Virus record (IMG/VR): IMGVR_UViG_2579778606_000002
Location: 1 to 64,000 of that record
DNA from: a virus
Taxonomy: Duplodnaviria; Heunggongvirae; Uroviricota; Caudoviricetes
Length of the DNA: 64,000 nucleotides
Reading direction: 5' to 3' (one strand)
In this document: positions 9,187-64,000 of the stretch, in pieces
Position numbering within the stretch: position 1 is the stretch's first letter
Layout of the letters: each line of letters opens with the position of its first letter
Notes under the pieces: model-generated
What the model was told of the DNA's origin: nothing
Database searches by the model: none
What the model saw: the letters and a program-made list of their open reading frames with translations, nothing else
Position numbers and translations under genes: made by a program

Positions 9187-10224
9187 ATGAGTAAGAAGTC
9201 GATCGAGAATGAGTACAAACGGTTCCTGCAAACCGCTGAACGGTGGAAAGAGCTGGTGGTCGCAAACTCTGTTTTCCATGATACCAGTTACGTTGGCGAG
9301 GAATTTCGCCATGTTGCATTAACACATGATCCGGCTGTATTAGAAGAAGCTGAAAAATGCATAGCCGAATGGAAAGCCTTTGTTGATCTGTGTCGCAAGG
9401 ATGATGACAAAGCCTCAAACATTGTTGAGTCGGTTTATTTACCGATCCCATTCATTGTTGAGGATACTAATCAGAGTACGCATATCGTTATGCAAAGCGC
9501 AACCACAACGAGAACATTTACGCGCGAAGACCTGCTGAAAAAATACGATAAAACTATAAAGAAAAGCATGAAAAACAGGATCTTTTCACAGGTTGTCGGT
9601 GCGCTTGAAGAAGAACGCAGATTCTTCGCCGCAGAACGTGAGGGCGAGGTATACCGCGCAAGAAAAGAAGGTTATACCGATGTGGTGATTACCACCAATA
9701 TCGAGGGCAACAATGGACTTTCACGCTTCAGAGTGGGTACGCACGGTGCGCTGATCTTTGCAAAAAAAGCAAACACAGAGATTCCCGTTGTTAACAACGT
9801 TGGTGAGCGCCGCACCCTTACCATTTACACTGGCATTAAACCGCTTCCGTGCGGACTTCTCGGCGAATTTGACCTTTATCGGGTTCGTGACCTGGAAAAG
9901 CAGCAGCCAAGCTATGTCGTGAAGTCATATATCCTGAGAAACATTGATATCCGCAATCAGAGTTTAAAAAACAAATCAGAGAAAATGCTGTCCGAAGCCG
10001 ATCCAGCCATACACCAGATCGTTAGCCGGAAAATTCAAGAAGCTAAAGATGCAATGGCAAGGCTGGATAAAATGGACCTGGAACTACTGGAAGTTATGAT
10101 TGCCTCCGGCGATGACCTGACAGGCATCCGCCTTACTGAAGCCAGGAAAAAATACGGTAAAAGCGTTGAAGAACGCTATGGGTACACATTCACACAAACG
10201 ATGTACGCGGCAAAACTCTGGTAA
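9187..10224 (+). CDS. hypothetical 345-aa protein, AT-rich gene adjacent to rox; possible repressor-position or accessory gene
   Basis: ATG at 9187 with AGGAA upstream (ORF track start 9124 is TTG); lower GC than flanks; flanked upstream by two operator-like motifs. Confidence 0.45.
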   Translation: MSKKSIENEYKRFLQTAERWKELVVANSVFHDTSYVGEEFRHVALTHDPAVLEEAEKCIAEWKAFVDLCRKDDDKASNIVESVYLPIPFIVEDTNQSTHIVMQSATTTRTFTREDLLKKYDKTIKKSMKNRIFSQVVGALEEERRFFAAEREGEVYRARKEGYTDVVITTNIEGNNGLSRFRVGTHGALIFAKKANTEIPVVNNVGERRTLTIYTGIKPLPCGLLGEFDLYRVRDLEKQQPSYVVKSYILRNIDIRNQSLKNKSEKMLSEADPAIHQIVSRKIQEAKDAMARLDKMDLELLEVMIASGDDLTGIRLTEARKKYGKSVEERYGYTFTQTMYAAKLW

Positions 10225-15040: not shown

Positions 15041-15117
15041 TGGTGGCCCCTACCGGACTTGAACCGGTGACCGTGCGATTATGAGTCGCCCGCTCTAACC
15101 ACTGAGCTAAAGGGCCA
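15041..15117 (-). tRNA. tRNA-Ile2-like (anticodon CAU; could be read as Met without lysidine modification)
   Basis: Reverse complement GGCCCTTTAGCTCAGTGGTTAGAGCGGGCGACTCATAATCGCACGGTCACCGGTTCAAGTCCGGTAGGGGCCACCA folds as cloverleaf; anticodon arm GGCGACTCATAATCGC like E. coli ileX. Confidence 0.7.
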
Positions 15118-15544
15118 GATTACTGTTAATTACGCTTACGCTTTTTGCCAGAACCGCGTAAGGCTTTTGCCGCTTGCTCTACCCCGTATGCAACCACCAG
15201 CAGAAACAATAATGTCCACTCCGGGTTTTTATCGGCAAACGCCCAAAAATCCATCACTTGCAGCCACCTTTTAAGACAAACGCCATTGCTGTTAGGTTGC
15301 GGTGCCGGGTGCCTCCCGGTGACGTTAACCAGTTAACAATTAACGCCGGATCACTTATGGATTCTCGTTACGCCAGTAAAAAGACCACCTTTACTGTTTT
15401 AACTGTTCCGCGTGCGCTTAGCCGCATTCACCGCAATGGTAAGAGCATTTGGCTGACTGGGCGGCGATGACGCCTGTACGCATTTGGTGATCCGGTTCTG
15501 CTTCCGGCATTCGCTTAATTAGCCAAATACTCTTAACGTTGCGA

Positions 15545-15631
15545 TGGCGGAGAGTAATGGAATCGAACCATCATCGCTTGGGCGACGGGACGGTTTTCAA
15601 GACCGCTTGAGCACCATGCTCCCTACTCTCC
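15545..15631 (-). tRNA. class II tRNA, probable tRNA-Ser (anticodon UGA); D-arm atypical
   Basis: 7-bp acceptor GGAGAGT/ACTCTCC, discriminator G, CCA, anticodon loop CTTGAAA, long variable arm, T-loop TTCGATT. Confidence 0.45.
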
Positions 15632-15872
15632 AGTGATTGTGGTGGTCGGTGCTGATCTCCGACTGCGCCTCTTTTTTTCATAGCCCATAAGGCCGGTCAG
15701 TGCGCTTGATGACTGAGGCATCGATATTTACTACGCCGCCTCGTTGCCATAGGGCGGACTTGCGCGCCAGCAACGCGCATTCACCACAACGGTAAGGGTA
15801 CTTCGTAGGGATTCGAACCCTCTGCCAAGCACGGCGATCTCCGACGTCGCAAAATACCCTTACCTGTTGTGT

Positions 15873-15948
15873 TGGTGCCGGTTAACGGACTCGAACCGCT
15901 GACATCCTGCTTACAAGGCAGGCGCTCTACCAACTGAGCTAAACCGGC
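15873..15948 (-). tRNA. tRNA-Thr (anticodon UGU)
   Basis: GCCGGTTTAGCTCAGTTGGTAGAGCGCCTGCCTTGTAAGCAGGATGTCAGCGGTTCGAGTCCGTTAACCGGCACCA; canonical cloverleaf. Confidence 0.8.
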
Positions 15949-15952
15949 AATT

Positions 15953-16039
15953 TGGTGGGGAGTGATGGAGTCGAACCATCCGAGTCGCAATGACAGTAGA
16001 TTTACAGTCTACCCCGCTACCCCTACGGACTAACTCCCC
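15953..16039 (-). tRNA. class II tRNA, probable tRNA-Tyr (anticodon GUA)
   Basis: Acceptor GGGGAGT/ACTCCCC, anticodon arm GTAGACTGTAAATCTAC and variable arm similar to E. coli tRNA-Tyr; D-arm imperfect. Confidence 0.55.
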
Positions 16040-16044
16040 TAAAT

Positions 16045-16121
16045 TGGCGATGGTGGGTGGATTCGAACCACCGACCGACAGCTTAGAAGGCTGCTGCTCT
16101 ATCCTACTGAGCTACACCATC
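16045..16121 (-). tRNA. tRNA-Arg (anticodon UCU, reads AGA)
   Basis: GATGGTGTAGCTCAGTAGGATAGAGCAGCAGCCTTCTAAGCTGTCGGTCGGTGGTTCGAATCCACCCACCATCGCCA; canonical cloverleaf. Confidence 0.75.
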
Positions 16122-20675: not shown

Positions 20676-23600
20676 TTAGGCCGCATCGGCGATTATTTTA
20701 CGCAGTTCATCTACCGAGTAACGCGTAGATACCATCCATGCAGGACGGTCAAAGTTCACATCAGCAACCGGGTTTGCTTCAAAATTCCAGAAACGCCCGC
20801 CAATCTTCTTAATCGCGTCTTTGGCGTTCCGTATTGTCGAGGAACCAGGTTGGTCGGCAATGAGATAAACCGCACCGACGTCCTCGCTGACACTCCACCA
20901 GCGCCCGCGAACACGCGCCTTAGCGCGAATCGGCTTATCATTAACCACAATGATATAGTCATCATTCGCCGCTTCATCAGCTCTGGCTTCAGCCACTGCC
21001 GCCTGCTCTTCTCTTTTGCTTTCAGCCTGTTCAAGCCTTTCCGCGATCTCTGATTCGGTGGCCCCGCCGTTTTTCAGCGATACATAGTCTTGCCACGTTG
21101 CTGATTTGAGCGCATCCGGCAACTCATTCACATAGTCACCGTCTTTCAACTCACGGGCGCGGCGGGTAGCCATTTCTACCAGGCGATTAACAGAAACAGC
21201 ATCAGCAAAATCGTCCTTACTAATGTGTTTTTCATCAAATGCATTGATGACAGCCCCCACCTTAATCCACTGTGCTGCCGGTGATTCCAGGGGGTTATCA
21301 GCCTTAACAATGGCGAGTTTCGCTCCATCTACCCCATTATTCGCCAGCTGTTCCAATGCCGCCCATCCATCTGCATCACTGAGTGATTTATATTGCTCAA
21401 ACAATGCATCGCGCCAGGCCACCAGCGCAGAACGTGTTTTTTCGATCTTCGCCTTAATTTTCGCGATCTTGACCTGATTAAACATCCGTTCAATATCATC
21501 GATATTGCTAAAGGCTTTCATCCTGCCCTGGAATAAACGGTATGCCAGCACGGTCCTCCAGAATGATTCCAGACCTTCTCCGGACGGTTTGCGGAACAAG
21601 CTAAGAATATCTTCAGAAGTGACTTTATTAAGCGAACGACCTGACAGACCACGCCCAGCCATCCAGTTTTCGAACTCCTGGGCAACATCATCCATCGTTG
21701 CCTGTGCGCCCCATGCCTGCATTCCCTGGGTGTAATCATACCCATACAATGCCTGGAGGAATCCCTCGCCGTCCACGATATTCAGCGGGTTATCACTGGC
21801 TTGTATTTTTGCCACTTCACGCTTCAGCGCCTCGTCGTTGCCATCAGGATATATCCATCGCTCAGGTGCTATATCCGATGCTCGCCCGATTTTTTGGCCT
21901 ATCACGCCATCATAGGCCGATGACAGCGCGATCTGACCATCATCTGTGCGATATGCCCAGTATTTAATAGCTGACCCACCGCCCCATGCATTACCAGGTT
22001 TACCAGCAATAACATTCATTACCCCATTGCGAATAGCATCATAGAACTGATCGCGAGTAAGTATTGTTGATAGCTGGTGGCACTGAACACCACGCGCAGC
22101 CGTTGCGCGCGATTCAGCTACCCCCTCTTCAAAAGTTACCGCCTCAATCACAGAGTCAAACGGCAATGTAACGATTGACCCCGGTGCTCGAGCGTAACGA
22201 CTTGCTCTATCCAGCCAGGCGATACGGCAGAGGTATTGTGCTTTTTCACCGTCAATTTTTTCCACCCGGACAATCGCTGTTGTTTCGCGATCATCAATGA
22301 CTGCACGGTAATAACTACCTTTATGCAACAGGATATTCTTGTCAGTGCGCATATATTCCTGTGGGTTCTGAATAACATCGATACTGATATCCAGCACACC
22401 AGACTTAATAGCGCGCTCCACATCACCACGAGAGCGTTTCATTATGGTATCCGCGTCTTTTGCCCTGGTGATCGCAAACCGCAGCACCCGCGCACGTTTT
22501 CTGTAGCTACTCAACTGCTCAAGCGCGTATTTTTGCCCATTCCTGTTCGTACCCGCTTTTATCAGGTCGTCAAGATTGCGCTGGTAATACTCTATCTGTT
22601 CCATCGCGCTTTTCAGTTCTGTCTCCATCATGCCGATATCTTTTCCGGCGGCGTTTGCCGCTTTCAGGTAGATATCGAGAGCATTGTTGGCCTCGCGCTG
22701 TGCTTTCAGTTTCAGACGTTCTTCACGCTCTTGCGCCTGGCGAGCCATGATTGCGCGGCGTTCTTCCGGGTTTGCCGCCAGCATAATGGCGCGTTCATCA
22801 GCATCATCCGCATCACCATTGGCGATCTCTGACATGTCGGATGTCATCACCATCTTGATCCAGTCTTTCTTACGTTTCAGCGTATCCAGACGGAAGTCGT
22901 CGAATGTGCCTTTGCCACAATAGTAGTGAACATTGACCTTTTCTTGCGGTGAACCTACGCGCGCACCGCGCCCATTTCGTTGGTCGATACTGGCTGGTGT
23001 CCAGGGTAGTGTCAGGTGGTGGATATCGGTTGTCCCGATGTGCAGGTTAATACCTACTTCAGCCTTCTTGTTACAGATTATGATGCGCGTGCGACCTTCG
23101 TTATAGTCGGCGGCAATACCTTCCATGCCCTCAAGGCCAGCATCATTTTTAGCGGAGAGATAATCCTCATATTGGGCAAGTTTGCTGTAGTAGGTTTCCC
23201 ATGCCCCTTCTTTGTATTCACCGTTTTTGTTTGGAGTAGGTTCGGTCGGCTTATTCACCTTCTTCAGCTTGATGCCACCAGCCTGGCTAACTGTCGTCGC
23301 ATTGATAATGCCAATCTCCTGCTCCGGCATTTGCAGTGCACTGGCGATAATACGGCGCAGCTTCTGGTGCTGGGCTTTTTCATCAATAAAGACGATCTGC
23401 TTACCGTTCTTCAGACCTTCACGAAGATTTTCGATCAGCGCGGCATACTTCGGCGGGATGGGGTGCGATACCTGCTGCATATCAATGCCGGCAGCCGCAA
23501 TGGCCTTCAGTATTTCAGCTTCCAGTTCAATGCTGGCACGTATTTCAACATGCGTCGGATGTTCACTAAAAGCGGTCTTCACTACCTTGCTGGTACGCGT

Positions 23601-26600
23601 ACTGACCAGCCCGCCAGCGCCGTCTTCCTCGGCCTCATCAACATCATCTGCCACTTTACCGCCAGCTACTTTTGGCAAGGCATCAGCAATAGCTTTTACC
23701 TGGTCTGCAAGCTCAACGGGGAACTGGAATGTAATCGCACTGGCATACAGATCCGGGTCTATAGCAACCTTATCCATGTCACGGATGATGGAGAAGATGA
23801 AATCATCCGGTTTGTCGTTAGTGATATGCCCGTTTTCATCGACTGTCAGCTCATCATTGCGACTTAACTCCTGAGCACGCTTACGAAGCTCTTCATAAGC
23901 AGTCTCCTGCTCCCCTGTCATCGGGATCTGCAAGGTGTTCTCGATGATGTCGGGAATTTTAACCGTCGCTCCGACATCTGCAGCAGTCTTCAGAGTGGTC
24001 CACCGATGGAAAATACCACGCAGGCCGTCAAGGTTCTGGAAGCCCACCAGCCCCTGCTTCTCTTCCACTTCCCCGGAAATTTTCTGGACCTGAACTGTGG
24101 CTGTTTTGCCAAACACACGAACGAAATCATCAGGCGTAATGATGCCCATGCGCATCCACTCTTCCTGCGGAATGACAGTAGACAGCATGTTGAAGGCATC
24201 AATCGGACTGTTCACCAGCGGAGTTGCCGTCAGCATGACTACACCACGCCCGTTGTTGCGTTTCATCATGTACGCAGCTTTTACAGCCATGTCGCGGGCC
24301 ATCTTGGATACTGCCGGGTTAGGCAAATATGCCAGTTGTCCCGCTTCACGCCCGGCATTAAAGGAGTTGCGGTAGTTATGCCCCTCGTCGGCAATCACGC
24401 TATCGAAGTTCATATCCTCAAAGTACGGGATATTCTGCTTCTTCGTTGTACCGGTATTCGCGGCCTGATCCTTAATCTTGTTCTTCTTCTGCGCATCACG
24501 GTGTTTACCGGACGCCAGGTCAAGACGCCCCATTTCCACAGCATTAAAGACAGCTTGCTGTGAGTTCTCCTCGATGGTTTTTTCTCGTAGCGGGATAGAC
24601 GCGAATTGTTCTTTTGTCATGATGACCGTTCGCCAATTTGACGACGGGATCATGTTCATACGCTGAACGATAACGGCGCTGGAGGACTCTTTCACAACAT
24701 TTCTGGTAAGAGGCTGCCCGTTACTGTCGAGGCGTGGTTCGCCATTTTCATCAAGCACCGGCGCGGTCAGAATATTTCCGCTGTCATCACGAACTTCATC
24801 CAAACCGATAAACATCATATTGGCGAAGGCATCAGCACTGTAGAAACTCTGTGCCTCGTGATACCAGTTCTGATAAACCGCCTTCGGAACAACAATACAC
24901 GTGCGTTTAGTGCGACCTGTTTCGAAGTTATACGCCTCAAGCGCAAGCGCGGTCGTGGTTTTACCCAGCCCGGTACCAAATCCCATGATGCCACGCCCAT
25001 CTTCTGACAAGCGCCGAACTTCTTCATTCTGATAAGTCAGAGGAATGCGCTTTCCACTAATCCCTTCCAGGCCAAGCGGTGCGTCAGAATGTGTGAACGG
25101 AATGAAACCATTGAATGCGTCGTTATAGTCACGGGCTATCTGATCCGCCTGCGGGTGGGTGCGTAACCAGTCGTTAAAGCTAACTTCCAGTTGAGCAATT
25201 TTATCCAGGTACTCGTTAGCGTTCTGCCCACGCGGTTTAACACCGTTCAGGTAGTTTTCTAACTGGTTCAGGAAGCCGTCTTTATTGTTGGCCTTCTTGA
25301 ACTCATTCCCGTTTTTGCCGTTTACGGTTCGTAGCTGATAGCCGGTAAATACCCCGTCCTTACCTTCGTAATCGTCCGGAGATACCAGAATGCCATCGAC
25401 GACCTTCAGATCAGGTTCAGTGTACTTAAACTCGTCATAGCCCTGCTCTGCCAGGAACTCTTTTATCAAGCGGCGATCCAGCCAGCGGGCATTCAGATTA
25501 ACGGTGACTTTATTTAGTGGCGTGAAAATACGTTTCTCTTCGATTTTCGCCAACTGACGCTCAAAGTTCGCTTTCTGCTCACCTGTTGACGCATCACGCC
25601 AGCCCATCAGCAATGCTGTTTTGGTTGCAATATCGCCGCTGGTGGCGCGGTCCATCGGCAGCAGGCAGCCATACCCATCAATAGCGATATCATCAAATTT
25701 CGCCAAGTATTCAAGGGCCGCGTCGTCGTCCTCTGGCAGTTCACCAGCAAACGCCTCACGAAAGTCTCCCAGCGTTATAGGATTAAGGGCTACATCACTG
25801 AAAAGATGTGCTATCACTTGTTCAGGACGTGTAAAGTCAATACCGGCAGCACCATCTGTTACATCAAGTCGCCCTGCCAGAAGGTCAGAAGTGGAACCAT
25901 CCTGTTTCACATTGCCAGTGAACGTCATCCAGTTTTTAGCGCCAGCTTCAGCAAGCCCATTCAGCTTAATAGCGTGCGGTGGTCCATACTTCGCAACTTC
26001 TGCTGCCGCCAGGCGGGATGCATCTGCCAGTTTGTCATCAACGTTCACACCCAGGTTACGCAAATCAAGTGCCTTGTTGATCAACTGACCTATCAGCGCA
26101 CCGCGCATAACGCGCTCCCTGTCTTTTTCTCGCTGCTTGCCAGCAAAGCGAATCATTGCTGCCACTTCATCACTGACAACCGATGGATAGTCGGACGCGA
26201 TCGCCGATATCTGGTCCCATGACAAAGCCAGAATCCCGTTTGTTGACTGGAACGCGATCTGCAGATCGCCAAACGTCGAAACACCATATCGACTTACATC
26301 AAGTACGGAGGATTTGGTTGTCGCATCTTTAACCCATTGCAGGCCATCAAACTCGTGCCAGATGCCACCTACAAGGCGCTTGTCTCCTACTTTGGCGCCC
26401 TGCCATGCCTGAGTAGTTACGCCAAGCAAATCCCAATTAATGCGGCTTTCAAAGCGGCGCGATAGAGCGGTTTTCATCGACTCATTGGATACACGACCGT
26501 CCTTTTTCACCACCAGAGTATTGCGGAAGCTGGTACGTTCCATGTCGCCGTAAACAAATCGTTTCCCTTCGGTTGTAAACCATTTTCCTTTGAGGAAGGT

Positions 26601-27527
26601 ATCCCAAAGGACGTTTGCCGATTTGAGTGTTGAATCATCCGTGTCGGGGATCATCTCCTGGAAGGTTTCCGGGTGTTTACGCAATACCCATACGTCCACC
26701 ACGGTATCTGTACCGGATTCGCTGAACGTACCAGAAGGCATACGATGCGCGCCCAAAAATTCCGCTTTACGGCTGACTTTATCGCGCAATTTTTTGTATT
26801 TCGTACCATCGGTCATGCCATTCGGCACCACCAATACAATTAGTCCACCAGGCTTAACCTTGTCGATCGTGCGCAGCACAAAATAATTGCCAACGTTCTT
26901 CTCGTTTGCATATACCGGATCAAGCCCGGCGACGCCGGAACGCCCTTCGCCAAACGGTACGTTACCAACTGCGTGGTCATACATTGCATCTTTCGCCGCC
27001 AGCGCCTCAAACGCCCCGATATTCACATCATCTTCCGGGTGCAAAAGCTGGTTTATTCGACCGGAGATCGGAGACAGTTCGGCGCTGGTCATTATCATGC
27101 CCTGCCGTTTTGTCTCCTGGAAAATACCTGTGCCTGCTGACGGTTCCAGTATGTGACCGCTATCAATACCGTAGTCGCCGAAGAGATCCCATATACCTTC
27201 TGCCATAAACTGTGGCGTGTAGTATTCGTATTGGCTGCCCTCACCATCTGTCAGGCCGCCTTCACCGGTATACCCGGCAAGAATCTGACGCTGTTCGTCA
27301 GTTAATTTCGCTCCATCGAAGCCGGGCGGAAGGGAATTAAGAAGATCTACTGCGGCGTTGTTTGCTGTCCGGCGTGTTTTCTGAATACTGACGCCATCGA
27401 CTTTCTTAACGCCAAAGGTCACTACAGCTCGCGGTTTATGCAACCGACTAACAATTTCAATCAGCGCCCCAATGCTGGTGGCCTGGCTAATTGAATCAAT
27501 TATTTTGTCCAAAGGAAGCCCCCTCAA
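20676..27527 (-). CDS. darB: DarB-like antirestriction protein: N6-adenine methyltransferase plus SF2 helicase fusion
   Basis: 2283 aa; MTase motif I LEPSAGTGIF and motif IV-like GNVPFG; helicase Walker A GFGTGLGKTTT and DEGH box; size matches P1 DarB (about 2255 aa); start codon at 27527 is TTG. Confidence 0.75.
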   Translation of the reverse strand: MRGLPLDKIIDSISQATSIGALIEIVSRLHKPRAVVTFGVKKVDGVSIQKTRRTANNAAVDLLNSLPPGFDGAKLTDEQRQILAGYTGEGGLTDGEGSQYEYYTPQFMAEGIWDLFGDYGIDSGHILEPSAGTGIFQETKRQGMIMTSAELSPISGRINQLLHPEDDVNIGAFEALAAKDAMYDHAVGNVPFGEGRSGVAGLDPVYANEKNVGNYFVLRTIDKVKPGGLIVLVVPNGMTDGTKYKKLRDKVSRKAEFLGAHRMPSGTFSESGTDTVVDVWVLRKHPETFQEMIPDTDDSTLKSANVLWDTFLKGKWFTTEGKRFVYGDMERTSFRNTLVVKKDGRVSNESMKTALSRRFESRINWDLLGVTTQAWQGAKVGDKRLVGGIWHEFDGLQWVKDATTKSSVLDVSRYGVSTFGDLQIAFQSTNGILALSWDQISAIASDYPSVVSDEVAAMIRFAGKQREKDRERVMRGALIGQLINKALDLRNLGVNVDDKLADASRLAAAEVAKYGPPHAIKLNGLAEAGAKNWMTFTGNVKQDGSTSDLLAGRLDVTDGAAGIDFTRPEQVIAHLFSDVALNPITLGDFREAFAGELPEDDDAALEYLAKFDDIAIDGYGCLLPMDRATSGDIATKTALLMGWRDASTGEQKANFERQLAKIEEKRIFTPLNKVTVNLNARWLDRRLIKEFLAEQGYDEFKYTEPDLKVVDGILVSPDDYEGKDGVFTGYQLRTVNGKNGNEFKKANNKDGFLNQLENYLNGVKPRGQNANEYLDKIAQLEVSFNDWLRTHPQADQIARDYNDAFNGFIPFTHSDAPLGLEGISGKRIPLTYQNEEVRRLSEDGRGIMGFGTGLGKTTTALALEAYNFETGRTKRTCIVVPKAVYQNWYHEAQSFYSADAFANMMFIGLDEVRDDSGNILTAPVLDENGEPRLDSNGQPLTRNVVKESSSAVIVQRMNMIPSSNWRTVIMTKEQFASIPLREKTIEENSQQAVFNAVEMGRLDLASGKHRDAQKKNKIKDQAANTGTTKKQNIPYFEDMNFDSVIADEGHNYRNSFNAGREAGQLAYLPNPAVSKMARDMAVKAAYMMKRNNGRGVVMLTATPLVNSPIDAFNMLSTVIPQEEWMRMGIITPDDFVRVFGKTATVQVQKISGEVEEKQGLVGFQNLDGLRGIFHRWTTLKTAADVGATVKIPDIIENTLQIPMTGEQETAYEELRKRAQELSRNDELTVDENGHITNDKPDDFIFSIIRDMDKVAIDPDLYASAITFQFPVELADQVKAIADALPKVAGGKVADDVDEAEEDGAGGLVSTRTSKVVKTAFSEHPTHVEIRASIELEAEILKAIAAAGIDMQQVSHPIPPKYAALIENLREGLKNGKQIVFIDEKAQHQKLRRIIASALQMPEQEIGIINATTVSQAGGIKLKKVNKPTEPTPNKNGEYKEGAWETYYSKLAQYEDYLSAKNDAGLEGMEGIAADYNEGRTRIIICNKKAEVGINLHIGTTDIHHLTLPWTPASIDQRNGRGARVGSPQEKVNVHYYCGKGTFDDFRLDTLKRKKDWIKMVMTSDMSEIANGDADDADERAIMLAANPEERRAIMARQAQEREERLKLKAQREANNALDIYLKAANAAGKDIGMMETELKSAMEQIEYYQRNLDDLIKAGTNRNGQKYALEQLSSYRKRARVLRFAITRAKDADTIMKRSRGDVERAIKSGVLDISIDVIQNPQEYMRTDKNILLHKGSYYRAVIDDRETTAIVRVEKIDGEKAQYLCRIAWLDRASRYARAPGSIVTLPFDSVIEAVTFEEGVAESRATAARGVQCHQLSTILTRDQFYDAIRNGVMNVIAGKPGNAWGGGSAIKYWAYRTDDGQIALSSAYDGVIGQKIGRASDIAPERWIYPDGNDEALKREVAKIQASDNPLNIVDGEGFLQALYGYDYTQGMQAWGAQATMDDVAQEFENWMAGRGLSGRSLNKVTSEDILSLFRKPSGEGLESFWRTVLAYRLFQGRMKAFSNIDDIERMFNQVKIAKIKAKIEKTRSALVAWRDALFEQYKSLSDADGWAALEQLANNGVDGAKLAIVKADNPLESPAAQWIKVGAVINAFDEKHISKDDFADAVSVNRLVEMATRRARELKDGDYVNELPDALKSATWQDYVSLKNGGATESEIAERLEQAESKREEQAAVAEARADEAANDDYIIVVNDKPIRAKARVRGRWWSVSEDVGAVYLIADQPGSSTIRNAKDAIKKIGGRFWNFEANPVADVNFDRPAWMVSTRYSVDELRKIIADAA

Positions 27528-29960: not shown

Positions 29961-30019
29961 AGTTACGGCCTCACTAACAGGTTTAACAACCTGCTACCCG
30001 CTGCTAAACAGGTGGCAGG

Positions 30020-30110
30020 ACGTGACGGGGTTAGCAGACTGGCGTTAGTGAAACCAGCAGGCCGAAGCCTCCCCATCACGCCCCACCATAATTTGGGCGT
30101 AACGCGGTTT
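30020..30110 (-). ncRNA. c4: candidate C4-like antisense RNA (contains a'/b' elements CACTAAC … CTGCTAAC complementary to two flanking target pairs)
   Basis: Minus-strand RNA would carry CACTAAC and CTGCTAAC (30030..30050) complementary to GTTAGTG / GTTTAGCAG copies at 30156..30183 and 29972..30013 (the latter just upstream of icd RBS); boundaries approximate. Confidence 0.4.
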
Positions 30111-30290
30111 TACGGACACAAAAATACCGCAATATCGGATATCTGCGGTTGTCCGCACTAACATTCAGGCTGCTAAACCCGGTCGCAGAATTTGCTACGA
30201 CGGCATGAATATAAGCCTGAACATTAGAAAGATCAACAGAATTTTTATCAGATGCTGTTTTTTAGTGACGATATAAATCATACATTCTTG

Positions 30291-30376: not shown

Positions 30377-31339
30377 TCATCCCCGAAAGCCCTCCGGAAT
30401 TGACCAGTCTTCCCGGTCAAATTCAGACCGATAGCCACGCTGTTTCATCAGGTCAAAGGCTTCACCAATGGTTGCACACCCCTGGGAGCCAGAATAATCC
30501 ATTGAGAAATCCAGGGCACTGGATTGTTTAGGCTTATTCACTGCTGTAGCGGCACTACGTATCCATGCAAATTTTTTTGCCAGCTTTTCAGCGGTACGAT
30601 ACAGAGCCTGCCGTTTTGCGTGCCCCTCATCTGAACGACGCTTTGCAGCTCTCGCTTTTGCCGCCGCCAGGCAGTGGTTGGTATGTTCTTCCCTGATTAC
30701 TGGTTTTTTATCCAGACCCCCATTATCCGCTTGAGAACTATCTGCTGGTGAAGCCTTTGGCTGAACCGCGCATGATCTTTCTCTTCTTTTGGCTATAGAG
30801 TGACTCTTATTTTCTATTGGCTGTTCATTTTGAACATGGGGGGACTTGTTCAATTTGAACAGGGGGTTCCCAGTTTCAAAAAAATAACGAACCTTTGAAA
30901 TCAACTGCTTAACCAGTTTTGTGGCGTTGGCAAATTTGATGCCCTGCTTACTCCCTATCTCCATTGCTACATGAATGAAGTGGAGAAATTGTGTTGTAAA
31001 CCGGTACACGTTACACACCTGAGCATTGTTATTCGCTACCTGATGCTGCTTAACAAGCATTCCGCACTTCGTCGCTTCGGCAAATGCCCGGCGCACAGTA
31101 GAAATACTGCGTCCTGTAATCTCGGACATATCCGCATATGAGCGACGGATCATGTATTCATCGGTAGCTCCTGCCAGGTTGGCGAACTCGGCAATAATGG
31201 CGCTATGTGAAGGGGAAAGAAAACCGCTATGACGAGCAAAAAAACTCAACTGATGACCTTTGATTTTTTTGTGGTATTCAGTGTTGTTTTTATACTCAGA
31301 AGTGTTGAAAGTAACTGAAACTGAATTTAAAATACTCAC
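30377..31339 (-). CDS. HTH DNA-binding protein, 320 aa (function unknown; replication or regulatory)
   Basis: HTH-like MSEITGRSISTVRRAFAEATKCGML; basic Lys/Arg/Ala-rich middle region. Confidence 0.5.
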   Translation of the reverse strand: MSILNSVSVTFNTSEYKNNTEYHKKIKGHQLSFFARHSGFLSPSHSAIIAEFANLAGATDEYMIRRSYADMSEITGRSISTVRRAFAEATKCGMLVKQHQVANNNAQVCNVYRFTTQFLHFIHVAMEIGSKQGIKFANATKLVKQLISKVRYFFETGNPLFKLNKSPHVQNEQPIENKSHSIAKRRERSCAVQPKASPADSSQADNGGLDKKPVIREEHTNHCLAAAKARAAKRRSDEGHAKRQALYRTAEKLAKKFAWIRSAATAVNKPKQSSALDFSMDYSGSQGCATIGEAFDLMKQRGYRSEFDREDWSIPEGFRG

Positions 31340-54394: not shown

Positions 54395-55345
54395 TTATTG
54401 ATAATGGTTAGCCATCCATTCAGATCTAATTGATGGGATAAACTCTCTATTGAGAAATGGGGCGTACAGCGTGGTAGTCACGTCTGCACCCTCCTTAGCG
54501 TTTTTGCAGCGTTGTGGCGGTAGGATCAGGCGGCTTGTGCCTCGTTCAATAGCCATTTTTAAGCCGTGGCGAAGGTCTTTCTGCATGAGCTGAATGCGAG
54601 CTACCAGAGGGGTAAACTCGGTTTCCAGTGCCATGTTTTCAATGATATCGAATCGTCTGTTTGCAGCTTGTGTGAAGTCTTCTGGATCGTCGTTCAGAGA
54701 TGTACACAAGGCCAACTCAGCTATGCGGAGACGAGCAACCTCAGCACTGTACTCTGGAGTTTTCATATCAGGCAAAGTGGCGCGCATACGTTCAAGCAAT
54801 TCAGCGCCTTTCCCTGTTAGCGGTTTAAGCGTCCACTCGGTTGGTACTCCGTTTATAGGGACCATAGTTTTAACAAACGGCGGGACAGTCAGGATTTCTA
54901 CCGTTTCGGCAAGGTCTGAAAGGTTAATATCTGCGTGATGAACGTTTCCACAGTGACCACACTCATATGAGTAAGTCATGACGGCATCAGGCCTGGAATT
55001 AACAAAGATCCACCAAAGCGCGGTTCTGCGATCCTGAACTGTCCAGTTTGAGCTGTCGCTAATTTCGCCATCTTGCATAGCGTTGAGGTATTCTGTTGTG
55101 GTTGCCTCGTCTTCTGCCGGATTGATGTCTGAATATTTCAGGGCATCTTTCACAGTAGGTGCATGAAACTGAATTTCTATTTCAGGCTGTGAAGGCAATG
55201 GGAATTTGGGAATGTTCAAGGATTCCTCCAGAAAAGTCGGTACTCGTTTGGCTGGAGGATAGGGAGTGTGTGATTTTGACTTTAACCTATTTATCCACAG
55301 GGTAGATCCAATAAATAGATCCCAAAGAGAACCAGTAAGATCCAA
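54395..55345 (-). CDS. hypothetical protein with CGHCG zinc-ribbon-like motif; annotated N-terminus overlaps origin elements so true start is probably internal
   Basis: 316-aa ORF; ECGHCGNVHH; 5' end overlaps DnaA box/GATC cluster. Confidence 0.35.
   Translation of the reverse strand: MDLTGSLWDLFIGSTLWINRLKSKSHTPYPPAKRVPTFLEESLNIPKFPLPSQPEIEIQFHAPTVKDALKYSDINPAEDEATTTEYLNAMQDGEISDSSNWTVQDRRTALWWIFVNSRPDAVMTYSYECGHCGNVHHADINLSDLAETVEILTVPPFVKTMVPINGVPTEWTLKPLTGKGAELLERMRATLPDMKTPEYSAEVARLRIAELALCTSLNDDPEDFTQAANRRFDIIENMALETEFTPLVARIQLMQKDLRHGLKMAIERGTSRLILPPQRCKNAKEGADVTTTLYAPFLNREFIPSIRSEWMANHYQ
55291..55299 (+). promoter_or_regulatory. DnaA box TTATCCACA
   Basis: Exact consensus 9-mer adjacent to GATC heptamer cluster and iterons. 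Confidence 0.6.
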
Positions 55346-55360
55346 AGAAGATCCCGGATC
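55305..55360. repeat. five GATC-containing heptamer repeats (AGATCCA/AGATCCC/GGATCGC), Dam-methylation cluster of replication origin
   Basis: GATC at 55305, 55318, 55339, 55350, 55357. Confidence 0.6.
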
Positions 55361-55397
55361 GCTGCGAGCCGCGCCATCACTGGCCTAAATGGCGATC

Positions 55398-55502
55398 AAC
55401 ATTGACTATGTGCGATTTAATGTTGACTATGTGCGATTTAATATTGACTGTACGCGATTTAATGTTGACTATATGCGATATAAACATTGACTGTATGCGA
55501 TA
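55398..55502 (+). repeat. five tandem ~21-bp iterons (consensus AATGTTGACTATGTGCGATTT), incC/oriR-like
   Basis: Direct repeats read from sequence, immediately upstream of repA. Confidence 0.8.
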
Positions 55503-55581
55503 ATTCTCTCAGCCGTCAGACGGCTGTGGATAAGTATCTTTCATTTGGCTATAAAGCCCCGTCAATCAAGGAAATAACAGG

Positions 55582-56466
55582 ATGGTAGATGACAAAAAAG
55601 GCTTTCTGAATGTTGAGGAAATATCAGGGAATACCGGAGAAATCCACAGCTTAAAGCCTAACAATAATAGTACTATTCAGCCGATAGCTTTGTTGCGGCT
55701 TGGGGTGTTTGTTCCCACATTGAAATCTACCAGTGTTGCTTTACGTCGCAAGAACGCCGGTTTAACTAACTCCACTGATGCGACAGAAGAGCTGTCCAGC
55801 CTGAAGATTGTAGAGCAGGAAGGGTATCAGGGTATTGAGATTCATGGTCCACGCCTGGATATGGATACTGATTTTAAGGTGTGGATAGGCATTACATCTG
55901 CATTGTTTGACTATAAACCAGATAATGATGGTGTGATCACCCTGACATTCTCTGAATTTGTGGATCGTTGCGGTTATCCAAGGAAGCGGCTGTCCAAGGC
56001 TTTTCGCAAGAGCATTGGCGACTCTCTAACGCGTATTCAGCAGACGTTGCTGAAGTTCAACTTGCCCACCAGCAAAGAACATGTTCGTTATATCCAGATG
56101 AATTTATTGGCATTTAGTGAACTTGATACTGAAAATGACATTATAAGAATCCAACCGCAGAAGCAGTTGTCTGAGTTGTACTACGTTGACTATAAGCGAA
56201 TATTGAAGCTCAAAATGCTCGATAAACTTGGCAGGAAAGAGACAGCCAAGGTGCTTTATACGTTTTTCGAAGCGTTACCTTCAAACCCTGCGCCAGTGAG
56301 TATTGAGCGCCTTCGTGCCAGATTGAACCTCAAGTCCTCGGTTAGCGTTCAGAACAGTGTGATTCGTAAAGCCATGAAAGACTTAGAAGCTGTTGAATAT
56401 CTTAAATTTTCAGAGATAAAGAATGGTCGGAAAATAGGTTTCCAGATCCATAAACGAAATCCATAA
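55582..56466 (+). CDS. repA: plasmid replication initiator RepA (iteron-binding, Rep_3-like)
   Basis: 294 aa (P1 RepA 286 aa); flanked on both sides by iteron arrays. Confidence 0.7.
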   Translation: MVDDKKGFLNVEEISGNTGEIHSLKPNNNSTIQPIALLRLGVFVPTLKSTSVALRRKNAGLTNSTDATEELSSLKIVEQEGYQGIEIHGPRLDMDTDFKVWIGITSALFDYKPDNDGVITLTFSEFVDRCGYPRKRLSKAFRKSIGDSLTRIQQTLLKFNLPTSKEHVRYIQMNLLAFSELDTENDIIRIQPQKQLSELYYVDYKRILKLKMLDKLGRKETAKVLYTFFEALPSNPAPVSIERLRARLNLKSSVSVQNSVIRKAMKDLEAVEYLKFSEIKNGRKIGFQIHKRNP

Positions 56467-56697
56467 CGTTGACTGTGTGCGATTCTAAGCGTTGACTATA
56501 CGCGACAAACATTGGCGCAGGCGGATTTAGTTATTAGCTTTTTCACATGATCAATGGATAAACCAGCTATTTTATTGAGTATTTGTCGCTTATAGTCAAT
56601 CTTTTCTCATTTCTTGTCGCGTGTAGTCAATGTTTTGTGATCGGGATCGAGTACAGTCAACATTAGTTGTAGGCCATTTCGCCTATAGTCAACATTT
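56466..56697. repeat. second iteron array (incA-like): two direct copies then four inverted copies of TTGACT(A/G)T(A/G)(C/G)GCGA-type iteron
   Basis: Copies at about 56466, 56489 (direct) and 56586, 56617, 56647, 56679 (inverted). Confidence 0.7.
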
Positions 56698-56988
56698 CTC
56701 CATCAGCAGTCTTAAGGGCAATTCTTACATCATTAGTTAGTTGGTTGGATCTTTAACGGCTAACATTATTTGTAATTTATTGATTAATAAGGAATGTGTA
56801 AAAATCAACCTCAGATGGCATCGTATGCTATAGCTATTTTTATAGCACTACTGTTGAATGTTTTATGGTTGTAACGCGTTGATTTTGTTGTGATGTGTAA
56901 AAAATGCCATCATTGACGTAAACAGCAGGTGTAGATATTGCCCTCAAGTTTGCCCCTTCCCCACCTTCTCGCACTTTAATACTACATT

Positions 56989-57726
56989 TCAAAACTTGAT
57001 CACGTTGCTGGCGGCGCTTTTAAGTGCGCTTGTTGCTAAACCAGCAGCTCCATTGACTAATGCGGACAGGCCTGAACCAGCAGATGTGTATCGCTGGAAC
57101 GTGATCGGATAGGACAAGAATTCGGACACCTGATCACGTGAGCGGCTGATCTCTCCTATCTGAGTCGGAAATACACGCATTTCCTCTTCCAGCTCTTTCC
57201 CGCCTTCCTGTGTAACGCGGTATAGCCTGATATTCATGAGATAATCTGGCGGCAGGTTTAGCGTACCATCGCTATTGGTTACACGGGCGCGGCGCTCCTT
57301 GAACCAATTCATTATTTTGCCGTCTTCTGTGTCTCTGACCGTCATTGTTACCGGTCCGGCGGTTACGTGCGTTGGCTTATTGAACTCGACGCTACCAATG
57401 ATTTTGCTTTCTGTTTCAATATTCCCGCTACTGTAAGTTATGTCCTTAACGAACATATCAAAGCCGCTTAATCCGTCTACGTCTACCGTCCACTGCCAGC
57501 CCTGGGCATAGCGGATACGCATAGCCGTAGCAACTACGTTCTTTCCGTAAGCGATGTCATTGCCGTAGCTCCCACTAACGCCACTGCCAGACACCGCTCT
57601 ATCCAGAATGTCGCTGATAAGGTTGCTGGTGAACGATTTCGCGCTAAACGATACCGCACTGGATAGCGTTTGCGTTGCAGCACTAAAAATACTCACGTAG
57701 CCCTCCGTGTTAAAAAATGGTGGCAC
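56989..57726 (-). CDS. hypothetical phage protein, 245 aa
   Basis: ORF in minus-strand morphogenesis operon. Confidence 0.4.
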   Translation of the reverse strand: MPPFFNTEGYVSIFSAATQTLSSAVSFSAKSFTSNLISDILDRAVSGSGVSGSYGNDIAYGKNVVATAMRIRYAQGWQWTVDVDGLSGFDMFVKDITYSSGNIETESKIIGSVEFNKPTHVTAGPVTMTVRDTEDGKIMNWFKERRARVTNSDGTLNLPPDYLMNIRLYRVTQEGGKELEEEMRVFPTQIGEISRSRDQVSEFLSYPITFQRYTSAGSGLSALVNGAAGLATSALKSAASNVIKF

Positions 57727-63969: not shown

Positions 63970-64000
63970 GTTACCGGCAGCATCAGTGGTTGGATCGACG

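Follow-up and report, generated by a model that had tools for sequence, protein, structure and literature searches.

The segment at 55277-56701 of the window (the whole stretch of viral DNA that was analyzed, 64,000 nucleotides long) is very probably a real and complete iteron module of the P1 family that serves the plasmid maintenance, by theta replication, of a D6-like phage-plasmid. It is, with the same high confidence, regarded as a rare and diverged subtype of the p0111-type replicon that was swapped in for the D6-type (RepE-like) replicon in the slot between pmgB and tub, the p0111-type replicon being in all likelihood a sister of the IncY replicon of P1 and P7 on the RepFIB-like branch of the dual winged-helix iteron initiators. 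Judged by its sequence, the element that carries the replicon is D6-like and not P1, and the replicon itself is not new, the same iteron consensus and layout being already known from the p0111 type. The swap is an ordinary module exchange, the mechanism of which is not new, and the RepA protein is already present in public databases (100% identity to WP_016262357.1).

The original prediction had described a complete P1-type replicon at 55290-56700 that follows the oriR-incC-repA-incA logic of P1, and all the elements that it listed were found at the predicted positions or no more than a few bases away. Between 55291 and 56692 there are a DnaA box, a cluster of five GATC sites, five iterons, repA, which is the open reading frame predicted for a 294-aa initiator, and a downstream array of two direct and four inverted iterons (Table 1). 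The resemblance to P1 was also upheld, since the origin core can be aligned with P1 oriR and RepA is 41% identical to the RepA proteins of P1 and P7 over 92% of the protein (tblastn, E 1e-58). What the prediction had overlooked were the inverted DnaA box, a sixth GATC, the GC-rich spacer, an iteron within repA, the remnants of a D6-type replicon, the D6-like backbone, and the replicon that was displaced.

Table 1. Features of the replicon and its surroundings (positions in the window)
Feature	Position	Strand	Remarks
pmgB homologue	54395..55219	-	Left flank, D6 backbone; WP_021551826.1; D6 orf41 is annotated "similar to P1 gene pmgB"
Replicon cassette (origin, repA, control array)	55277..56701	+	1.43 kb; stretch that replaces the D6-type replicon, in all probability, between pmgB and tub
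Left DnaA box, TTATCCACA	55291..55299	+	Sole perfect copy on the + strand of the 64-kb window; position shared with p0111-type and P1 origins
GATC (Dam-site) repeat cluster	55303..55361	+	TAGATCC twice, AAGATCC twice, GGATCG; aligns with the five annotated Dam sites of P1 oriR
GC-rich spacer	55357..55397	+	41 bp, 63% GC; sixth GATC at 55394
Five direct iterons, incC equivalent	55398..55503	+	TTGACTN5CGA cores at 55402, 55423, 55444, 55465, 55487
Perfect 8-bp palindrome, CAGCCGTC-A-GACGGCTG	55510-55526		Found by reading the sequence; overlaps the right DnaA box
Right, inverted DnaA box, TGTGGATAA	55525-55533	-	Sole perfect copy on the - strand of the window
repA	55582..56466	+	294 aa; dual winged-helix iteron initiator
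Iteron within repA, TTGACTATAAGCGA	56186..56199	+	Exact motif match; encodes part of YVDYKR
Two direct downstream iterons, first part of incA equivalent	56469..56505	+	56469-56482, 56492-56505; begin directly 3' of the repA stop
Four inverted downstream iterons, second part of incA equivalent	56586..56692	-	56586-56599, 56617-56630, 56647-56660, 56679-56692; about 31 bp apart
Scar: end of displaced D6-type rep (last codons and stop), ATCAGCAGTCTTAA	56702-56715		Fused to a D6-type iteron
D6-type iteron in scar	core 56715-56729	-	Scar spans 56702..56729
Further orphan D6-type iterons	56896..56944	+	Degenerate 56896-56910; perfect core 56930-56944
Tail-tube (tub) homologue	56989..57696	-	Right flank, D6 backbone; D6 orf43 is annotated "major tail tube structural protein"

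The origin is bracketed by the only two perfect DnaA boxes of the window, of which the left one had been predicted. The five GATC sites (55305, 55318, 55339, 55350, and 55357), which had been predicted as heptamers, comprise four of the AGATCC heptamer type and a fifth, GGATCG; five in about 57 bp form the densest cluster of the window, against a background of 3.7 per kb, and elsewhere in the 64 kb no 60-bp stretch exceeds three. By analogy, the cluster is presumed to be the site of strand opening and to be subject to SeqA/Dam control. The spacer has a 41-bp counterpart in the p0111 type, and P1 has the similar sequence …GATCG-TGC-AG-CCGCGCCA…CTGGC. At the site of the right DnaA box, the p0111 type has a different palindrome and a box with one mismatch, TGTTGATAA.

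The iteron motif TTGACTN5CGA has 12 exact matches in the whole window, every one of them within 55402-56692, whereas dinucleotide-preserving shuffles of the window contain 0.52 on average and at most 3, none of 100 reaching 12. The five predicted 21-bp iterons upstream of repA are present with spacings of 21/21/21/22 bp, a number and spacing found also in the p0111 type and in P1 incC; the 21-mer originally given for them, AATGTTGACTATGTGCGATTT, is the second iteron (55419-55439). The iteron within repA is part of a 17-mer, GTTGACTATAAGCGAAT, that recurs unchanged at the corresponding codons of the p0111 type. A weak further site in the gene, without the CGA half (55907-55920, TTGACTATAAACCA), was taken as a chance occurrence. 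The six additional iterons that had been proposed downstream, in both orientations, correspond to the two direct and four inverted copies, and the spacing of the inverted ones is that of the inverted incA iterons of P1. The sequence at 56509-56527 (13 of 20 matches, read by eye) is possibly a decayed third direct iteron; a comparable degenerate copy is found at this offset in the p0111 type.

In the P1 family, repA is autorepressed from a promoter embedded in the iterons. A consensus scan of 55398-55581 gave no convincing sigma-70 promoter for repA, and the scan of the control region for promoters and terminators yielded nothing useful, the counts being those expected from shuffles. Two candidate promoters were picked by eye, TGCGATAAT, an extended -10 (55496-55504, in iteron 5), and TGGATA-17-TATAAA (55527-55555). 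No RNA family was found in the replicon with Rfam, so nothing points to control by antisense RNA.

In tblastn comparisons, RepA is 85% identical to the RepA' proteins of SJ46, RCS47, and JL22, 45% identical to SSU5 RepA, and, as noted, more distant from those of P1 and P7. The Pfam model Rep3_C matches it above the cut-off (26.5 versus 21.1), Rep3_N falls just below its curated cut-off (20.4 versus 22.4), and no NCBIfam model matches either this protein or P1 RepA. When PDB sequences were searched with the single sequence or with a profile, all matches were at chance level, and a fold search was therefore needed. With an AlphaFold model (pLDDT 74), generated from an alignment that left out P1 RepA, Foldseek matched RctB, RepE, pi, pPS10 RepA, and TrfA with a probability of about 1.0; because the sequence searches were empty, placement in the fold family rests on this model of moderate confidence. 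The RepFIB-type initiators of large enterobacterial plasmids and SSU5-like phage-plasmids, compared by protein, belong to the same protein family but are much more distant than the p0111 type (44-53% identity). The generic names "RepB family" and "RepFIB replication protein A" are shared by these initiators and the present RepA.

The closest relatives of the replicon are of the p0111 type; the comparison of iterons and architecture covered 33 distinct sequences of that type and three copies of the variant. Representatives of this type (SJ46, RCS47, JL22, and MH422554) have a RepA of the same length, and the entire layout is the same, including the DnaA box, GATC heptamers, 41-bp spacer, and five direct, one in-gene, two direct, and four inverted iterons; the consensus common to both is TTGACTnTAnGCGA, and individual iterons recur in both sets. 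The new iteron implied by the original prediction is thus contradicted by the p0111 type, which shares the consensus, individual copies, and 5 + 1 + 2 + 4 arrangement and has a RepA that is 85% identical. However, the two types differ in their DNA (77% identity in repA and 88% in the origin), in the leader sequence and palindrome, and in their location, since p0111-type replicons lie between upfA and parA/parB in a P1-like backbone and the variant between pmgB and tub in a D6-like one. JL22 repA' is p0111 by typing (PMC9603915). No intermediates between the RepA proteins of the two types were found, the identities being bimodal (100% and 85%); one candidate with 76% identity (P0004) proved to be a p0111 replicon of the ordinary kind, located in a P1-like context and carrying an in-frame deletion of 28 aa. 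Replicon typing needs about 95% or more nucleotide identity (PlasmidFinder defaults), and at 77% the present repA is below this threshold for p0111; MOB-suite gives the replicon a separate cluster, rep_cluster_2164.

The 43 positions at which RepA differs from p0111 RepA' are clustered in residues 1-20, 51-70, and 151-190. The last of these blocks, which forms β-strands of WH1 in the model, contains 18 of the differences and is only 55% identical. In contrast, there is a single substitution in the predicted WH1 helix (139-153) and there are two in residues 191-294, a segment that includes WH2 and is 98% identical; because the DNA encoding them is only 80% identical, this segment appears to be under purifying selection. 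Over the whole gene, the reading frame is intact, and synonymous changes are in strong excess in the comparison with p0111. The shared consensus, individual iterons, and layout, together with a RepA identity of 85% overall and 98% in residues 191-294, make it most likely that the replicon is a member of the p0111 specificity group.

P1 and P7 have the same organization and logic in oriR, incC, repA, and incA. The P1 origin core is homologous, with a DnaA box, five GATC sites in heptamers, and a GC-rich spacer, followed likewise by five direct iterons at 21-bp spacing upstream of the gene and by direct and then inverted iterons downstream. However, incA of P1 has nine iterons (3 + 6) versus six (2 + 4) in the cassette, the two DnaA boxes of P1 stand in tandem on the left whereas the cassette has one on each side, and the P1 replicon adjoins parA-parB-parS, which is absent beside the cassette. 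The iterons are unrelated to the P1 19-mer, GATGTGTGCTGGAGGGAAA, as the original prediction had maintained, and resemble none of the 14 annotated P1 iterons. A specificity different from that of IncY is therefore very likely, and to this extent the distinct incompatibility that had been proposed is sustained; its novelty is not, as the consensus and layout are common to p0111.

The replicon occupies a slot that is otherwise known from D6-type elements. In D6 (orf42), pYU39_89, and NZ_CP104667.1, the same phage backbone has the same order of pmgB, replicon, and tub, and D6 and 94 of 5426 complete Escherichia coli genomes have a RepE-like rep with other iterons in this slot. The D6-type replicon is also an iteron replicon, with iterons flanking rep on both sides (PMC6799933), but its initiator (251 aa, with RepE as the best NCBIfam match) is unrelated in sequence to that of the cassette, with no BLAST similarity, and its iterons differ (AGGTGTAAGATTTGCCCTCA, at 22-bp spacing). 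Similarity to D6 and to NZ_CP104667.1, the closest backbone, stops at 55276/55277 and resumes at about 56702-56712; the cassette itself recurs at 98.7% identity in NZ_CP085065.1 and at 96.7% in CP042620.1. No D6-type Rep was found in the window by tblastn, and the upstream D6-type iteron array is also gone. What survives, between 56702 and 56944, is the last 14 nucleotides of the D6-type rep and two or three iterons. Both D6 orf42 and the rep of NZ_CP104667.1 terminate in …TATCAGCAGTCTTAA, followed by the same iteron, and the iterons at 56896-56944 are sites in the downstream array of an intact D6-type replicon (locus L006, 4101-4149). These remnants strongly suggest that the cassette replaced a D6-type replicon and left behind the end of the old rep and two or three of its iterons. 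Another IMG/VR locus (L013), the protein of which is 100% identical, was considered as an equal of the window but is a sister type in which the D6 iteron array is complete. The D6-type iterons at 56715-56944 are orphans in the window, and sister plasmids have the full array. Among the D6-like elements there is also an iteron-to-iteron deletion of 58 bp, which may have arisen once or several times.

The variant replicon was found in 6 of the 5426 complete E. coli genomes, on six complete circular plasmids of about 94 kb, and about 30 kb of the element falls outside the window. In one of these plasmids, NZ_CP085065.1, the variant is the only plasmid-type initiator and the sole other replication gene is the lytic repL. 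Records matching the variant or p0111 number 414 in 414 genomes, none of which has two; with only about 0.45 co-occurrences expected by chance, this absence is uninformative as to incompatibility. As originally noted, parA and parB are not adjacent and morphogenesis genes follow, the flanks being the pmgB and tail-tube homologues; the tail-tube homologue is the next gene, in the place where an IncY replicon has parA-parB-parS. Within the window there are no partition genes, and tblastn found no ParA or ParB homologue. The search elsewhere that had been recommended located partition genes in NZ_CP085065.1, where, as in D6, parM/parR are found together with a small ATPase, 10.6 kb beyond repA and past the end of the window. 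The absence of an adjacent parAB thus reflects the use by the D6-like backbone of parM/parR at another location.

The results bear on three other readings. The idea that this is a P1-type replicon with a new iteron specificity, forming an incompatibility group apart from all known P1-family replicons, agrees with the lack of relationship to the P1/P7 iterons, the 77% identity of repA DNA to p0111, the separate MOB-suite cluster, and the divergence of residues 151-190. It is nevertheless unlikely, because the consensus, many individual iterons, and the layout are those of p0111, the predicted WH1 helix and the WH2-containing segment have one and two substitutions, respectively, and shared iterons are the known basis of incompatibility in iteron plasmids (P1, F, and R6K). 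That the cassette is an inactive relic or passenger, the element being maintained by another replicon outside the window, can hardly be credited. About 30 kb of the element does lie there, and firing of the cassette is surmised from analogy with P1, but the intact reading frame, the synonymous excess, and the intact iterons, GATC sites, and DnaA boxes are not those of a relic; furthermore, the near-identical complete plasmid NZ_CP085065.1 has no second plasmid-type initiator, only repL, and the D6-type rep gene that could have served has been deleted.

The reverse direction of exchange, in which the D6-like lineage would have started out with a p0111-like cassette and been invaded by the RepE-like D6-type replicon, is very improbable. 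The cassette is present in two D6-like backbones with flanks that are only 75-80% identical, which could be read as an old presence, but its own 96.7% identity between these backbones suggests later lateral spread. The end of the D6-type rep and the D6-type iterons that adjoin the cassette are expected only if the D6-type replicon came first, the D6 type is about 15 times commoner (94 versus 6 genomes), and no TTGACTN5CGA remnants or p0111-like repA were seen in the D6-type slot of two loci with that replicon (L004 and L006).

The steps of replication proposed for this p0111-type subtype are derived from P1. RepA monomers would bind the five phased iterons and host DnaA the two flanking boxes, and the two proteins would jointly open the adjacent region of GATC heptamers. 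The methylation state set by Dam, together with sequestration by SeqA, would limit re-initiation, and the downstream 2 + 4 array would titrate RepA and handcuff the origin, which would keep the plasmid at close to one copy per chromosome. The parM/parR system of the backbone would take care of segregation. Since the p0111 type has the same iteron consensus and agrees in both of the DNA-reading parts of RepA, compatibility with P1/P7 (IncY) is predicted for the element, as is incompatibility with P1-like prophages of the p0111 type. However, cross-reaction with p0111 in dimerization and handcuffing could be weaker than the common iterons suggest, in view of the 43 differences in RepA and the location of 18 of them in residues 151-190. 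A more speculative and rather doubtful extension is that the swap altered the partners with which the element can share a cell, freeing it from D6-type incompatibility and placing it in competition with p0111 prophages, with the retained D6-type iterons soaking up the D6-type initiator. If true, this would result in one-way exclusion of D6-type competitors or a depression of their copy number, and the divergent block of the WH1 β-sheet (residues 151-190) might in addition make handcuffing with p0111 origins weaker.

In genomic surveillance, phage-plasmids are tracked by their replicon genes, with IncY or p0111 marking P1-like elements and a rep gene of their own marking the D6-like ones, and according to one study IncY and p0111 are confined to P1-like elements. 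The window represents a D6-like element with a p0111-family replicon that, at 77% DNA identity, is too diverged for p0111 typing, and the D6 marker gene is absent; marker-based screens would miss or mis-assign such elements. The replacement appears to be a clean and datable exchange of a replication module between two phage-plasmid lineages in a fixed slot, with a scar that gives its direction, and it may offer a simple system for testing whether prophage-plasmids that otherwise differ are tied together in their incompatibility by common iterons.

The replicon at 55277–56701 (the cassette) is an uncommon and diverged representative of the known p0111 family, the type with the RepA′ of the P1-like phage-plasmids SJ46, RCS47 and JL22, and it stands in place of a D6-type replicon in a D6-like phage-plasmid. 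The window belongs to a D6-like element, not to P1: its first 25 kb are 88–98% identical to numerous E. coli plasmids about 90 kb in size, and its tail and baseplate region is ~80% identical to phage D6, a match that ends at 55276. In D6 this slot is occupied by orf42, which lies between homologues of pmgB and tub and encodes a 251-aa initiator with RepE as its best NCBIfam match; D6-type iterons (AGGTGTAAGATTTGCCCTCA, 22-bp spacing) flank the rep gene on both sides. The closest backbone, NZ_CP104667.1, is 98–99% identical to the window on either side of the cassette and has a D6-type replicon in its place, with breakpoints at 55276/55277 on the left and about 56702–56712 on the right. Across 55200–57000, the G+C content is 0.33–0.46 in the cassette and intergenic remnant, lower than the 0.47–0.53 of the flanking structural genes, which is consistent with a separate origin.

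Reading and scanning of the region recovered every element of the original prediction, namely a DnaA box, five GATC sites, five upstream iterons, a 294-aa repA and six downstream iterons of mixed orientation, and added an inverted DnaA box, a sixth GATC, a 41-bp spacer, an iteron within repA and the sequence bordering the array on its right. Exact copies of TTGACTN5CGA number 12 in the whole 64-kb window, all at 55402–56692, whereas shuffled sequence gives 0.52 on average; no other GATC cluster in the window is as dense, and the window's only two perfect DnaA boxes, one per strand, lie on either side of the origin.

Features of the replicon and the adjoining remnant (window coordinates)
Feature	Position	Strand	Remarks
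Left DnaA box	55291–55299	+	TTATCCACA; region read and scanned
GATC sites	55305, 55318, 55339, 55350, 55357		four AGATCC heptamer-type repeats, one GGATCG
Sixth GATC	55394
GC-rich spacer			41 bp, between GATC repeats and iterons
Five direct iterons	cores 55402, 55423, 55444, 55465, 55487	+	spacing 21/21/21/22 bp
Right DnaA box, inverted	55525–55533	-
repA ORF	55582–56466	+	294 aa
Iteron copy within repA	56186–56199		exact core in coding sequence, YVDYKR
Two downstream direct iterons	56469, 56492	+
Four downstream inverted iterons	56586, 56617, 56647, 56679	-
Orphan D6-type iteron, degenerate	56896–56910
Orphan D6-type iteron, perfect	56930–56944

RepA is 85% identical to RepA′ of SJ46, RCS47, JL22 and other P1-like phage-plasmids, 45% to SSU5 RepA and only 41% to canonical P1/P7 RepA. 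The JL22 rep gene has been typed as “p0111” in the literature, which describes the replicon of P1-like elements as either IncY or p0111 (PMC9603915). The parts of a p0111 locus (L003) agree with those of the window in kind, order and spacing: the DnaA box, the AGATCC repeats, the GC-rich spacer of 41 bp, five direct iterons spaced 21/21/21/22 bp, an in-gene 17-mer of identical sequence, two direct iterons at the stop codon and four inverted ones. When 33 distinct p0111 replicon sequences from IMG/VR were compared with three copies of the variant, a common iteron consensus emerged (…gTTGACTaTA.GCGAtt…), and individual iterons of identical sequence occur in both. The window's iterons bear no relation to the 14 annotated for P1, as had been predicted, whereas its origin core (DnaA box, GATC heptamers and GC-rich spacer) can be aligned with that of P1; the host-factor part of the origin is therefore conserved across the P1 family, and the initiator-specific part recurs only in p0111. 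The cassette is a P1-family replicon with a specificity very likely different from that of P1/P7, as proposed, but the suggestion of a new iteron type does not hold, the consensus being that of p0111.

In Pfam searches, Rep3_C scored above the cut-off and Rep3_N just below it, and sequence and profile searches against the PDB gave no match. An AlphaFold model built from 32 homologues (mean pLDDT 74, low confidence for residues 1–70) matched RctB domains 2–3, RepE, pi, the pPS10 RepA WH1 and TrfA in Foldseek with probability of about 1.0, and the predicted fold is the dual winged helix of iteron initiators. The 43 differences from p0111 RepA′ are clustered: residues 1–20, 51–70 and 151–190 (WH1 β-strands in the model) are 65, 60, and 55% identical, whereas residues 21–50 are 100% and residues 191–294 98% identical, the latter encoded by DNA that is only 80% identical. 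In the model, one substitution falls in the WH1 helix 139–153 and two in the WH2 helices and wing (220–292), suggesting that DNA recognition is conserved with p0111 and that any change would, if anything, concern a protein-protein surface.

The P1 scheme of oriR, incC/incA, handcuffing and Dam/SeqA control reportedly goes back to Abeles, Austin, Chattoraj and Brendler. By analogy with P1, from which all binding and replication steps are carried over onto the anatomy, homology and fold described here, RepA monomers would load onto the five phased iterons and DnaA would bind the flanking boxes; the heptamer region would open only when fully methylated and be sequestered by SeqA after firing, and the downstream array would bind RepA and pair with the origin, turning initiation off as copy number rises.

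Several smaller features accompany this layout. In the repA leader, a perfect 8-bp palindrome (CAGCCGTC-A-GACGGCTG, 55510–55533) overlaps the right DnaA box, and the p0111 type has a different one, GCTGTT-GAT-AACAGC, at that position; what is conserved is the feature and not its sequence, and it may serve as an operator or bind some other protein. A promoter scan of the control region found no repA promoter; two candidates seen by eye are TGCGATAAT in iteron 5 (55496–55504, extended -10), which is not conserved in p0111, and TGGATA-17-TATAAA (55527–55555), which overlaps the right DnaA box. The in-gene 17-mer (GTTGACTATAAGCGAAT) is identical in 33 of 33 p0111 replicon sequences within a gene ~20% diverged in DNA, which may reflect protein constraint or a role as a RepA site. 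A possible decayed third direct iteron, ACATTGGCGCAGGCGGATTT (56509–56527, 13/20 matches to consensus), lies 23 bp past the second downstream iteron, and p0111 has a comparably degenerate copy at the same offset; counting it, the array would be 3 + 4, nearer to the 3 + 6 of P1.

The exchange left a scar. Directly beyond the last inverted iteron, the window has …CATCAGCAGTCTTAAGGGCAATTCTTACATCA; the D6-type rep gene terminates in …TATCAGCAGTCTTAA, and the D6-type iteron TTAAGGGCAATTTCTACA comes next. Thus, 14 nt of the old rep 3′ end and one D6-type iteron survive at 56702–56729. The right junction is identical in the window, in the sister plasmid NZ_CP085065.1 (cassette 98.7% identical) and in CP042620.1, which argues for a single origin; at the left junction, CP042620.1 differs by a 14-nt indel. 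By-eye reading suggests that the right junction may have arisen where TTCTCATCAAGCAGT, downstream of the last p0111 iteron, happens to resemble CCTATCAGCAGT, the D6 rep 3′ end, over a short stretch. Because CP042620.1 is only 75–80% identical to the window in the flanks but 96.7% in the cassette (98.1% in repA), the cassette has moved between D6-like lineages that are themselves diverged, probably through recombination within conserved flanking genes. NZ_CP085065.1 keeps the whole downstream D6-type array, with five orphan sites (9516–9704 of its locus, L001), whereas the window (56715–56944) and CP042620.1 have three and lack 58 bp between two D6-type iterons of the same orientation, suggesting recurrent deletion, or restoration, by iteron-iteron recombination.

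The predicted lack of an adjacent parA/parB extends to the whole 64-kb window, in which tblastn found no homologue of ParA, ParB, ParM, ParR or a ParA-like ATPase. NZ_CP085065.1 has parM, a partner gene and a gene for a small AAA ATPase 10.6 kb past repA and on the far side of the capsid gene, a position that projects beyond base 64000 of the window. D6 has stbA/stbB at that position, as does the D6-like pYU39_89 (PMC6799933). Since D6-like relatives place their partition genes this far from rep, the missing parAB reflects the D6 backbone and is nothing peculiar to the replicon.

In the complete gene list of NZ_CP085065.1 there is no second plasmid-type initiator, only the lytic repL besides. 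In the window, a C4 antisense RNA with a1/b1 target sites (Rfam; 30008–30214, minus strand) and a 320-aa ORF (30377–31339, minus strand) matching in size and position the sister plasmid's “lytic replication protein” (RepL) constitute a P1-like immI/lytic-replicon region. Also on the minus strand are five clustered tRNA genes (15041–16121; Met(CAT), Ser(TGA), Thr(TGT), Tyr(GTA) and Arg(TCT)) and a 2283-aa ORF (20676–27527), the counterpart of the “SNF2-related protein” of related plasmids. NZ_CP085065.1 is annotated with Ile, Ser, Thr and Asn tRNAs, and the tRNA set therefore varies between close relatives.

Among 5426 complete E. coli genomes, the cassette occurs in 6 (~98.8% identity), always on plasmids of about 93–95 kb, compared with 94 for the D6-type cassette and about 400 for the p0111 type; two PLSDB plasmids and one IMG/VR contig also carry it. 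Public databases already contain the RepA protein (WP_016262357.1), whose cluster has 16 members. No intermediates between the variant and p0111 were found in the protein cluster or IMG/VR; one candidate, P0004, was rejected as a p0111 gene with a deletion. On an ENA metagenome scaffold of P1-like context (L010, 618–1418), a p0111-type repA has a 28-aa in-frame deletion in WH1 (…FSE joined to QTVVKF…), with iterons and neighboring parA/parB otherwise normal, and may be a defective copy or an assembly artifact. The cassette is of value for surveillance typing and provides a neat, testable case of replicon exchange in which orphan iterons of the displaced replicon have been retained.
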